A stretch of 64,000 bases of DNA from Octopus vulgaris (lineage: Eukaryota): the NCBI GenBank assembly GCA_951406725.2, contig OX597821.1, forward strand, positions 93,372,001-93,436,000, in the 5' to 3' direction. The stretch's first letter is position 1. Each line of letters begins with the position of its first letter. The notes under the pieces were generated by a model. The model did no database searches and was not told the origin of the DNA. It worked only from the letters and a program-made list of their open reading frames with translations. A program made the position numbers and the translations under genes. This document shows positions 5,699 through 56,451 of the stretch, piece by piece.

Positions 5699-5948
5699 GG
5701 GCAAATGGCGTAGTGGTTAAGAGTGTAGGCTACTAACTCCAAGATTCCGAGTTCAATTCCAGACAGTGACCTGAATAATGATAATAATGATAATGATGAT
5801 AACATCGAAAAATACCTTAGGAATGAGAACCCAGGATTGACTTTTCCTCAAGACACCTGATGAAGACTGGAGGGTACATCAGCCAAAACGTTCTGTTAAC
5901 AACAAACAAGATGAGGACAAATATCATCAAATGTAAATAATGTAAATA
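5699..5948 (+). mobile_element. tRNA-headed SINE with a hammerhead-like 3' module
   Basis: A box TGGCGTAGTGG, B box GAGTTCAATTCC, (AAT/GAT)n linker, GACAC-CTGATGA-A-GACTG..CAGCC-aAAA-CG-TT, terminal (AATGTAAAT)2. Confidence 0.7.
5852..5897 (+). ncRNA. Degenerate minimal type I hammerhead ribozyme motif
   Basis: CTGATGA core at 5857, stem II GACTG/CAGCC with one mismatch, GAAA read as AAAA, palindromic stem III AACGTT, stem I GACAC/cTGTT. Confidence 0.5.
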
Positions 5949-17843: not shown

Positions 17844-18131
17844 ACTGTAGATGCTCTTTGTGAAGTTTATTCTTTTGTAAGTGTTTGGTTAATGTTTCTG
17901 GTTTGAGGATAAGTTTCTCTGTTCTTTCCAACAGTCATGATGGAAAGAAGGATATGGGGAGCTTTTTCCATGGAATCATTAGAAAACAGCTATGGATACT
18001 GACTAAGTCATTAAAAATGCAACAATAACAATATATATCTATCTATATATATATGTAGGTCCCGGGTTGAGTCGGGGTTAACCACAGTAAATAAGGTACT
18101 CAATACATAGCAGAGTAAATTTTATAGAAGG

Positions 18132-18182
18132 AGCTTCTACAGGACTAGAACTGTTTCATTCAAAAGAAATCATCAGGAAGCT
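18132..18182 (-). ncRNA. Type I hammerhead ribozyme motif
   Basis: Exact reverse complement of the motif at 18472-18522. Confidence 0.8.
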
Positions 18183-18471
18183 AGGTGACAAGAATAGTTT
18201 TGGCATTTATACATTTAGGCAGGTTTAAAGGGGTGGTGGTGGGGGACTTTTTGGGGTAGGCATGGCGCAAACTATCATTCTTAGGGGAGTGGTCAAAGGA
18301 ATTAGTGATAAAGTAGATAAAAGAATATTCTTTTATCTACTTTATCACTGACTCCTTTGACCACTCCCCCTAAGAATGATAGTTTGCGCCATGCCTACCC
18401 CAAAAAGTCCCCCACCACCACCCCTTTAAACCTGCCTAAATGTATAAATGCCAAAACTATTCTTATCACCT

Positions 18472-18522
18472 AGCTTCCTGATGATTTCTTTTGAATGAAA
18501 CAGTTCTAGTCCTGTAGAAGCT
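18472..18522 (+). ncRNA. Type I hammerhead ribozyme motif
   Basis: AGCTTC-CTGATGA-T-TTC(TTTT)GAA-T-GAAA-CAG(TTCTAGTC)CTG-TA-GAAGCT: 6-bp stem I, intact core, short stem II, 4-bp stem III, GUA triplet. Confidence 0.82.
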
Positions 18523-18533
18523 CCTTCTATAAA

Positions 18534-18572
<39 letters not shown>

Positions 18573-53757: not shown

Positions 53758-54030
53758 ATTTTTTACTTTCTATGTATCTATCTGTCTATAGATGTGTGTT
53801 GTGTTGTGTTGTGTGTATGTGTGTGTGTGTATGTACATATATCCCCTCAATCAAGGGGTATTGTCTTGTGAGCTACTTGGCAATCTCATTGGTGTTGGTT
53901 ACACTAAAAAAACCACCCAGTATCCTCCACTGGCTAATCATGACACCAGTGCCTTTTCAGAACTGACTTTCTGTATATCACTGATCACTGGTGGGGAGGT
54001 GAATCCCTGCTATCTCTAGCAGTTGAACGT

Positions 54031-54080
54031 TCATCACTGATGAGAACAAGATAGGTTGAAATCATATGATACTGAAGATG
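54031..54080 (+). ncRNA. Type I hammerhead motif, unit 1 (stem I decayed)
   Basis: CTGATGA-G-AAC(..)GTT-GAAA-TCATATGA-TA, with palindromic stem III ATCATATGAT. Confidence 0.6.
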
Positions 54081-54370
54081 GTGTGGATTAATCTCCCCGC
54101 TAGTGATATAAATAATCATGCATTTTGCACCGAAAGCCTATATGAGAGTTTCTCACATGATATCTACTACAGTAAAGTTCATTCTAACAGAACACCCATG
54201 TTTCAGAGGGAATAAATGTTACCTCTCAGTTTTAATACTGCTTCTCTCACTAATATATGTTTTCTGACAAGCTCACTGGTTAATCGTAACTCCAGCACCA
54301 GTTCTGGCACTGATCTTCTATATATCCCTGTCAGGGAGGTGAGTCATTGCTATCTCTAGCAGCCAAGTGT

Positions 54371-54417
54371 CCATCACTGATGAGACCAAGGGAAGTCAAA
54401 ATCACATGATCTGGTGG
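54371..54417 (+). ncRNA. Type I hammerhead motif, unit 2 (G12 replaced by A)
   Basis: CCATCA-CTGATGA-GAC(CAAGGGAA)GTC-aAAA-TCA(CA)TGA-TC-TGGTGG; all three stems pair; AUC triplet. Confidence 0.7.
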
Positions 54418-54757
54418 TCTAGGTGCTGGAGTTGGTAGGGATTTATGTCCCTGCTAGCAATATAAACAAGCATGCATTTTGCTCCAAAAGCCTATGTGAG
54501 AGTTTCTTTCATTGTATCTATCACAGCAAAGTTTGATCTAACGGAACATCCACATTTAAGTGGGAATAAATATCACCATCATGAAGTAGTTGCCAATAGG
54601 AATGGAAACCCATCCATAGAAACTATGCCAAAACAATCACTGGAGTCTGATGTAGTCAGGTCCTGTCAAACCATCCAACTCATGCCAAGATGATGATGAT
54701 GATATTTATTTGTTTAATGAGGGAGACAGAAGATGGAAGATATGAGAATATTTATTG

Positions 54758-54847
54758 ATCACAACAATTGTTTCAACCCTCATGAGTGGGATACTCAACA
54801 ACTGGCTTAGGAGTATCTGTCAGTGTAGATGTGTCTCTTCAGGAGAT
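54758..54847 (-). ncRNA. Type I hammerhead motif with extended stem II
   Basis: Minus strand ATCtC-CTGAAGA-GAC...GTT-GAAA-CAATTG-TT-GTGAT; palindromic stem III ACAATTGT; internal hairpin GATACTC/GAGTATC. Confidence 0.65.
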
Positions 54848-55147
54848 GACAAGATGTGCTTCATTAAAATAATGTCTGTTCCACAGTTTTTCTTCCCAAT
54901 ATGTGTATGCAAAGGCAGAAAATCCTATGAGAGGTTGATGGTGGATGAATGATCCATAAACATTCTTGTATCTTCCATCTTTCAATCTCTCATTAATCAA
55001 ATACCCAACAAACACTGTGAAAGTGAACATGGTTTACCAGTAAGCTACCAGATTTATACTATATGATTTATTATTTAATAATATATATATATAATTGAAA
55101 TAATTTGGTGTCAACAAGAAAGAGCATAGTTGAACATTCATTTTTTA

Positions 55148-55253
55148 ATCACTACAATTGTTTCCATTCAACATAGTTCACCAGGCATGGAGGTACTTGA
55201 TTATACAACTGTTTCCCAGCATTATGAGATCTAGTTGTGATTCCTCAGGTGAT
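55148..55253 (-). ncRNA. Type I hammerhead motif with very long stem II
   Basis: Minus strand ATCAC-CTGAGGA-(~77 nt)-GAAA-CAATTG-TA-GTGAT; perfect 5-bp stem I; GUA triplet; base of stem II decayed. Confidence 0.68.
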
Positions 55254-55362
55254 AATAGTCCTTCAGCAACAATGCACCATGATAAACTCAGTGACTACTA
55301 CTAAATTCCGGCCATAACAGACAGAAAGGATATTCTTGAACTTACGGAGACAATAATTACAT

Positions 55363-55468
55363 ATCACCTGAGGAAACACAACTAGTTCTCATAATACAGG
55401 GAAACAGTTACATAATCAAGTACCTGCACACTTGGAGAACTATGTTGCATCGAAAAAATTGTAGTGAT
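55363..55468 (+). ncRNA. Type I hammerhead motif with very long stem II (stem III C to A)
   Basis: ATCAC-CTGAGGA-(~77 nt)-GAAA-aAATTG-TA-GTGAT. Confidence 0.6.
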
Positions 55469-55800
55469 TAAAAAATAAATATTAAAATCATACCCCTACT
55501 TGTTGACTTCAAATTTTTTCAATTATTTATTCACACAACATGCCAAAACACAACCCTGGAAGTACATATAATACTACTAGTGTCTAGCACAGGGTGGAAT
55601 CTGAAGGTGGGCGAGATTTATGCTGTACTCTACTACAGTCGTAACAGAATATATCATAACTATATATATATATATATATATAAGTATTTTTTTTTTTTAA
55701 ATAGGATAAAATCTTTATAAGAAATTATCAAGTAGTTAGCGTGAAAAACCTCGTAAGAAAAAAATCTGTAAATTTTTTCAACTTTGAAAATACTTATTCA

Positions 55801-56145
55801 TATTATATAGAGGGTACTATTATTCATAGGTACCGCCCGCTAGGAGGGACTTTTGCAGTCAAAACTACTAAAATAAACAAATTGTACCGAATGCAAACTT
55901 CAAAGCGAGTCATTTAAAAACAGAATTTAGTTACATATCACCTGTGATTTCGCAATCAATGCAGAATATGCATTCTATGCTCTTCAGTGCAACGAACTCA
56001 AGACAAGTAAGAAAAAACACATCACATACCCGACAACCAACCATAGAATTTTGCATTCGGTACAATTTGTTTATTTTAGTAGTTTCGACTTAAATGTCCC
56101 TCCTAGCGTGCGGTACCTATGAATAATAGTACCCTCTATATAATA
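55801..56145. mobile_element. Fold-back element with ~100-bp arms and a hammerhead in the spacer
   Basis: TATATAGAGGGTACTATTATTCATAGGTACCGC..TTGTACCGAATGCAAA vs TTTGCATTCGGTACAA..GCGGTACCTATGAATAATAGTACCCTCTATATA. Confidence 0.85.
55930..55993 (-). ncRNA. Type I hammerhead ribozyme motif with intact core
   Basis: Minus strand GTTGCA-CTGAAGA-GCA(..)TGC-GAAA-TCAC(AG)GTGA-TA-TGTAAC: 6-bp stem I, G-C closed stem II, 5-bp stem III, AUA triplet. Confidence 0.85.
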
Positions 56146-56451
56146 TATATATCATCATCGTTTAGTGTCCGATATATATATATATATAATCAAAATAAGC
56201 AACGAGGATATCGAGATATCCTCTGGATATCCTTGTTGTGGTGGTAGTGGTGATGATGGTGATGATGTTGATGGTGGTGATGGTGATGGTGATGGTGATG
56301 ATGATGATGATGATGAGGATGATGACCAGTTATGCATTGGGTCGATATAATCGACTTAATCCATTTGTCTGTCCTTGTTTGTCCCCTCTGTGTGTAGCCT
56401 CTTGTGGGTAGTAAAGCAATAGACATGTTATACTATATTATATCATATATT

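Follow-up and report, generated by a model that had tools for sequence, protein, structure and literature searches.

Hammerhead ribozymes in Penelope-like elements and retrozymes

The closest described systems to the locus analysed here are the Penelope-like elements (PLEs) of the Hydra clade and the non-LTR retrozymes. Hydra-clade elements, as described by Craig et al. (PMC8557442), encode an endonuclease that is C-terminal to the RT, with a CxCX5C linker and CxxC and CxH motifs, and they carry a 3' hammerhead with a near-palindromic stem III and an optional tail. They insert into (TA)n, a preference reported for nearly all Hydra families, and many members have a mismatch at 10.1-11.1 of the ribozyme (PMC8557442). 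One element from the same survey, Penelope-13_HM, has an inverted 5'-truncated copy, with hammerheads on both strands. Tandem copies, inverted truncated copies and tails are, as far as the available literature goes, standard for PLEs.

The hammerheads of metazoan PLEs have been described as minimal type I ribozymes, with a short stem I, a palindromic stem III and an extra base after A9 (PMC4209133). The same source describes a U3-A8 core variant, opposite-strand pairs that lie 100-700 bp apart, and a predominance of single truncated copies. A PLE protein has been reported to nick AT-rich DNA and to initiate reverse transcription from two positions on its RNA, which gives rise to a tail, while the hammerhead is protein-assisted and dispensable for insertion in vitro (PMC11167929). 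Non-LTR retrozymes consist of tandemly arranged non-coding units, each of which carries one type I hammerhead (PMC7229834; bioRxiv 10.64898/2026.07.22.740005).

A cluster of hammerhead motifs in Octopus vulgaris had been put forward in an earlier note as the best candidate for an undescribed system. However, each of its traits already appears in the available parts of Cervera and De la Pena (2014) and Craig et al. (2021). The locus is ordinary transposon debris, composed of elements that are new and of kinds that are already known. The cluster very probably represents four independent hammerhead-carrying insertions, likely written serially by Penelope-like RT-endonuclease proteins that cut (TA)n. 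It serves as a tidy example of TA-targeting Penelope-like elements stacked end to end, and matters little in itself.

Six motifs in four insertions

The window is the whole stretch of 64,000 nucleotides that was analysed (C8:93372001-93436000), and the genome searched comprises 2.8 Gb in 227 contigs. Six hammerhead-like motifs are present at the sites and on the strands that had been noted, with cores at 54037(+), 54377(+), 54842(-), 55248(-), 55368(+) and 55987(-). Inspection confirmed that U, A and G all occur at N7 among them. About four families had been claimed, and a genome search with each piece indeed recovered four dispersed repeat families. The description of the locus as a six-motif hotspot needs to be qualified: there are six motifs, but they belong to only four insertions (A-D) and do not represent six events. 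The tandem dimer structure of A and the inverted self-copy within C double the count and account for the presence of motifs on both strands. A repeat search identified a 340-354 bp direct repeat (motifs 1 and 2) and three sets of inverted arms.

Each family majority was derived from the 30 loci with the best match. Since these include the window's own locus, the majorities lean towards the window's copy. Mapped back, they cover 53928-54577 (A), 54708-55002 (B), 55091-55526 (C) and 55699-56151 (D), with no further copies of the four families in the window. Copy candidates are found on many contigs and number 2243, 1732, 1534 and 2268 for A, B, C and D, respectively (the best 40 of each were scored). 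No host gene was recognisable by eye among stop-to-stop frames of at least 120 aa in the window, a scan that is blind to short exons.

Under a strict type I descriptor, motif 6 is the only one of the six to pass, and also the sole pass in the whole window. In the interval 53900-56100, none of the Rfam hammerhead models matched at E<=10. For the whole window, there was no hammerhead among the 150 of 260 Rfam matches listed, which were only microsatellite-driven miRNA noise. The core elements CUGANGA, GAAA and UH, together with stems I-III, are present in motif 6 and in the A, B and D majorities, and are incomplete in motifs 1-5, such that five of the six motifs are damaged or have a non-standard core. 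For the family majorities, the energy of the hammerhead fold exceeds that of the minimum-energy fold by 0.7-3.2 kcal/mol; for motif 6, with the flanks that were used, the difference is 4.3 kcal/mol.

The retrozyme-like insertions A and D

Insertion A (53928-54577, + strand) is retrozyme-like. It consists of a 354-bp non-coding unit in a tandem dimer that is only partial, and each unit carries a single type I hammerhead. Motif 1 (54031-54069, +; GAAA at 54058) has a palindromic stem III, and in this haplotype has lost its cleavage site and the 3' strand of stem I. The contigs of runs X4 and X6 have 14 nt after 54069 that are absent here, a loss that is also seen in run X2. Motif 2 (54371-54417, +) has an AUC triplet and carries A in place of G12 at 54398, a CpG-type change. 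At the majority level, family A is a proper type I hammerhead of the U3-A8 variant described in PMC4209133, with the U3-A8 core in 19 of 52 rows.

Insertion D (55699-56151, - strand) is a truncated copy of a tandem non-coding unit of about 495 bp, the spacing of units at tandem loci being 492-496 bp. The unit itself spans 55699-56050 (-) and is followed by an inverted arm at 56049-56151 (+), which has TA repeats at its end. Motif 6 (55930-55993, -) is an intact type I hammerhead with a stem I of 6 bp, a stem II of 3 bp plus an extension, a stem III of 4 bp and an AUA triplet. It is identical to the family D majority, which is a proper type I hammerhead, and its exact 52-mer occurs 102 times in the genome (control 0). 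The identity of D to its family majority is 95-96%, against 74-86% for A, 81-89% for B and 86-89% for C. Judged by these identities, D is the youngest of the four insertions. Going by sequence, only D's ribozyme, among the six motifs, would be expected to cleave if transcribed. Family D, being young and intact and having 102 identical copies, offers a direct test case for cephalopod ribozyme cleavage and circular RNA.

Both A and D resemble non-LTR retrozymes in being built of non-coding units in tandem, with a single type I hammerhead in every unit. Their units occur as monomers, dimers and trimers, there is no PLE protein match inside them, and the search for a coding partner found none for either A or D. 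Two consecutive units with complete hammerheads are present at other D loci, and not for A or D at this locus. The copies in the window, a damaged dimer (A) and a truncated monomer (D), fall outside what Li et al. call 'active', as given in the available part of that preprint (bioRxiv 10.64898/2026.07.22.740005). D differs from non-LTR retrozymes in having PLE-type inverted arms and strong TA targeting.

Insertion B and its Penelope-like carrier

Insertion B (54708-55075, - strand) appears to be the 5'-truncated 3' end of a Hydra-clade Penelope-like element. Its main part lies at 54708-54923 (-), and an inverted copy of its 3' end, plus a tail, lies at 54950-55075 (+). Motif 3 (54758-54847, -) has a long loop II and a GUU triplet, a departure from the GUA of family B. 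A 16-nt deletion has removed part of the 3' strand of stem II, and stem I is broken by a mismatch. At the majority level, family B is a proper type I hammerhead. An exact 17-mer of B and C occurs 995 times in the genome, versus 3 times for the control.

Longer copies of B extend upstream into an endonuclease-like frame. A 416-aa open frame at L203:1835-3082 (C1:171786834-171788081) contains both RT and endonuclease motifs, and in five of seven loci the B hammerhead region is found downstream of the RT/endonuclease frame. Homology is unbroken from the endonuclease through to the hammerhead in L092, L195-L201 and L204. Translations of L199, L201 and L204, read by eye, have a CxCX5C linker and CxxC/CxH motifs around a conserved E and N, and no CCHH.

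A word-index search with the endonuclease fragment returned no match, and a HMMER search returned 1784 relatives at E<=0.001, all unnamed. Pfam yielded nothing meaningful on four octopus fragments, and on a 628-aa relative it gave sub-threshold matches to GIY-YIG (E 0.002) and RVT_1 (E 0.02). Family B is assigned by its motifs to the Hydra clade, as a Penelope-like element with a putative GIY-YIG-type endonuclease. The carriers that had been suggested for the cluster, Penelope-like elements or retrozymes, are thus both represented, B by its Hydra-clade PLE frame upstream and A and D by their retrozyme-like units.

A genome search with the B endonuclease fragment gave 15,122 candidates, and going by that number, Hydra-clade frames are very abundant genome-wide. 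Two B-type motifs that lie 3.8 kb apart on C2 resembled a full-length PLE, and were rejected as a segmental duplication instead. This locus, L191 (C2:8943000-8949500), is a 3.8-kb tandem segmental duplication with a truncated B copy inside.

Family B differs from the Hydra-clade elements listed by Craig et al. (PMC8557442) in several respects. Hydra-1_Obim, from Octopus bimaculoides, has a different hammerhead, and a motif search of the available supplement gave no B motifs. Loop 2 of the listed Hydra elements is 3-10 nt, and the longest in the Craig et al. table is about 35 nt, versus about 77 nt from core to GAAA in B and C. Large loop II inserts of this kind have no description in the available part of PMC4209133 either. 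The tails at this locus, those of family B not alone, are also longer, at 70-135 nt versus 30-40 bp in Craig et al. (PMC8557442).

Insertion C

Insertion C (55091-55660, + strand) consists of an inverted arm at 55091-55254 (-), a main copy at 55254-55526 (+) and a tail that extends to 55660. Motif 4 (55148-55253, -), which has a GUA triplet and a weakened stem II, is an inverted duplicate of motif 5 (55363-55468, +), in which about 77 nt separate the core from the GAAA at 55452. Neither has a Watson-Crick pair at 10.1-11.1, which is a family trait, and both have private changes in addition; in motif 5, besides the mismatch at 10.1-11.1, the stem III palindrome is broken. The family C majority is a hammerhead in which an A-purine mismatch occupies the base of stem II, comparable to the mismatch of many Hydra-clade members (PMC8557442).

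No coding partner was found for C. Hydra-type matches occur near three C loci, by proximity only, and there are none in L205-L211. In these last loci (e.g. C1:160013197-160016397), the C copy is embedded in a larger repeat, 3 kb or more in length, which has itself been multiplied (85-92% identity on both sides), an arrangement of a captured ribozyme element riding another transposon. A 14-nt word is common to C stem I (55356-55369) and the stem III/cleavage site of D (55930-55943), in opposite ribozyme orientation, and is probably due to chance.

(TA)n joints and the stacking of insertions

TA runs connect insertion B with C and insertion C with D. The tail of B meets the inverted arm of C at a (TA)n run (55081-55093), a joint that is also present in a contig of run X8 (54998-55163), and in the sequence itself (TA)11 at 55661-55682 connects the tail of C with the 3' end of D. 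Across the genome, runs of (TA)>=3 lie within 25 nt of 24 of 58 copy ends of B (p 1e-10), 27 of 56 of C (p 7e-14) and 48 of 58 of D (p 6e-40), relative to a background of 9.3%. In all three families, TA follows either of two alternative end points. Since TA follows whichever end point is used, it is likely to be the target, and not part of the element. The copy ends of A are not clearly enriched (9 of 58, p 0.09).

The suggestion that the elements share a target consequently applies to three of the four insertions, with the (TA)n microsatellite as the target of B, C and D, but not to A. The distance from A to B is 130 bp, without a TA joint, across a fragment of another high-copy repeat (54578-54707) that ends in (ATG)n and has no hammerhead. 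The summed contig depth of this spacer repeat is in the thousands, and its AT-rich tail abuts the 3' end of B. A is likely a chance neighbour of the B-C-D stack.

Seven close pairs of different families were inspected elsewhere in the genome. Three of these lie across one TA run (L023, L003 and L141), as L124 probably does, and three do not. The pairs that span a single (TA)n are at L141:1250-1520, L023:1250-1420 and L003:1230-1530, with a tail-to-tail arrangement in L141 and L023. Stacking occurs in a minority of cases, as the flanks of 144 copies show no overall enrichment of other families.

The mechanism that best fits this arrangement would be one in which the endonuclease nicks a TA run and then copies the 3' end of its element, often with an inverted piece. 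TA left at the ends of a new element would stay a target for later arrivals. B, C and D would have been written into TA runs in turn, with D last, into the terminal TA run of C. A and D might borrow the proteins of a PLE. B, C and D all show 5' truncation, an inverted partial copy and an optional 3' tail.

It has also been suggested that the elements home to each other. The families might do so by sequence, for instance through a shared ribozyme or pseudo-LTR sequence, and not be drawn to TA runs. Stem I/III sequence is common to B and C, a B-C pair at L048 abuts without a TA run, and a purified Penelope-like protein is able to nick its own pLTR region (PMC11167929). Yet the flanks of the 144 copies contain 22 other-family insertions in 432 kb versus 31 expected, in counts that exclude the loci of the window itself and the duplicates L046 and L167. 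The four families alone occur 3 times in 345 kb of flank versus 3 times in 400 kb of arbitrary DNA. At the locus itself, joints are outside the ribozymes, in TA runs, and no element interrupts another. Mutual homing is thus very unlikely to have produced the cluster.

The inverted arms raise another alternative. Long, TA-flanked arms resemble those of Tc1/mariner MITEs, and B, C and D could be DNA transposons of this type, or all four insertions could form one giant multi-ribozyme Terminon-like element. However, an inverted piece is present in only 14 of 29 D, 7 of 28 C and 1 of 29 B blocks, arm lengths and break points vary by copy, and B leads to an RT frame. Fixed terminal inverted repeats, as in a MITE, were rejected on the grounds of these varying or missing arms. 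The A-B-C-D order, expected of a single element, recurs in none of 115 other copies. Either version of this alternative is extremely improbable.

Genome-wide abundance and the role of chance

A background sample of 40 stretches of 10 kb, taken at round coordinates on 28 contigs (400 kb), contained 28 intact-looking motifs. Five of these are mismatched at the stem II base, a form absent from the shuffles, and for the other 23 each of 10 shuffles gave 0-1. A homology back-search of the sample gave 40 motifs in 29 insertions from 15 families, using a library that is incomplete and partly seeded from the sampled stretches, and from which the weak single clusters F13 and F17 were dropped. Extrapolation yields 161,000 motifs genome-wide (95% 102,000-242,000, with motifs treated as independent, though tandem copies are not) and 203,000 insertions. 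The average density is about one insertion per 14-16 kb, and the cluster is locally far above it. One stretch, L121:2250-4570, holds seven identical intact hammerheads on both strands within 2.3 kb, in a 359-bp tandem array that includes an inverted portion, and is both denser and fresher than the locus.

With uniform placement, four insertions within 2.2 kb would be expected about 7-9 times per genome (122 times if element length is ignored). Because uniform insertion gives only this small number of clusters, the explanation leans on the TA-targeting model. Simulations in which 50-80% of insertions target (TA)>=5 give about 300-2100 four-element clusters per genome, although they are crude, with fixed 400-bp elements and all TA runs treated as equal, and the real cluster is tighter than the simulated 2.2-kb span. 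The earlier note had asked whether the density exceeds random expectation: it lies beyond uniform chance (about 0.0002 per 64-kb window), but within the (TA)n model (0.7-5% per window). Under this model, the cluster would be a tail event that requires TA bias and nothing more.

Pure chance, without any targeting, would suppose that about 200,000 insertions give a few clusters, and that the scan picked one of them. The 7-9 clusters per genome of the uniform model leave room for this, and A needs chance in any case. Against it, nothing but TA runs separates B from C and C from D, with no other host DNA at either joint, and the bias towards TA has been measured. An untargeted origin is accordingly rated as highly improbable, and serial insertion into (TA)n is preferred.

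The hammerhead stems are preserved across families that differ in sequence. In total, 21 sequence clusters pass the descriptor, and traits that it does not require are common among them, namely G10.1-C11.1 in 12 of 21 and, in 15 of 21, a stem III that is fully self-complementary (with one example taken per cluster). In 11 of the 21 clusters, 28-94 nt lie between the core and GAAA. Intact-looking motifs number about 57 per Mb here versus about 4.5 per Mb in the axolotl, albeit with different descriptors; the axolotl has 126,247 hammerhead motifs (PMC7229834) in a genome of 28.21 Gb (bioRxiv 10.64898/2026.07.22.740005). Per-genome counts in PMC4209133 are in the thousands, versus the approximately 160,000 estimated here from a sample and with a different descriptor. 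No published octopus hammerhead counts or long-loop variants were found in the literature outside subscription journals and Repbase/Dfam.

A more far-reaching reading can be offered only tentatively, as somewhat more likely to be wrong than right. It holds that at least 20 families contribute about 160,000-200,000 hammerhead motifs to the genome, at more than 10 times the density in the axolotl. About half of the families would form an undescribed class with a folded loop II insert of 30-90 nt, still cleaving and missed by standard models, and chains would be built by reusing the TA runs at each other's ends. If the sampled density holds, the hammerhead load of this animal would rank among the largest known, and would include a long-loop variant that escaped Rfam here.

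Decay and age of the locus

The ribozymes may have served the parent elements, likely by cutting multimeric transcripts to unit length, as dimers formed via the palindromic stem III, and those at the locus would since have decayed. The 14-nt loss in motif 1 is decay, not conservation. Contigs of runs under three other organism labels hold A (X4, X6), the C tail (X4, X6) and the B-C joint (X8), so these components are old. Among the joints listed for contigs of four runs, none skips D or another whole element, and no empty-site allele was seen. Nor did any of the contigs listed for the four runs span the whole stretch or bridge the joints of D.

This age, together with the intact motif 6 and the long hairpins that the inverted arms would form if transcribed, could be taken to mean that the host keeps the cluster as a two-way transcript-cutting or small-RNA locus, as had also been proposed. 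The state of the motifs argues against such retention: five of the six are damaged or non-standard, and motif 1 has had its cleavage site deleted in this lineage, where relatives keep it. Moreover, the sole intact motif lies in the youngest insertion and is identical to 101 other copies, and an arbitrary stretch, L121, has seven intact motifs on both strands. Retention by the host would be a most improbable explanation, and the decay of independently inserted elements the preferred one.

Other hammerheads in the window

About five further motifs had been reported in the remainder of the window. Three were recovered, at 5843-5920(+), 18176(-) and 18478(+); the motif library is incomplete, and five are possible. 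The first is a damaged copy of hammerhead family F7, in which G12 has changed to A. The other two are identical hammerheads on opposite strands of a fold-back element (18095-18560) that ends in (TA)n. They have a U-U at the base of stem II, and another copy of the element is found in L159.
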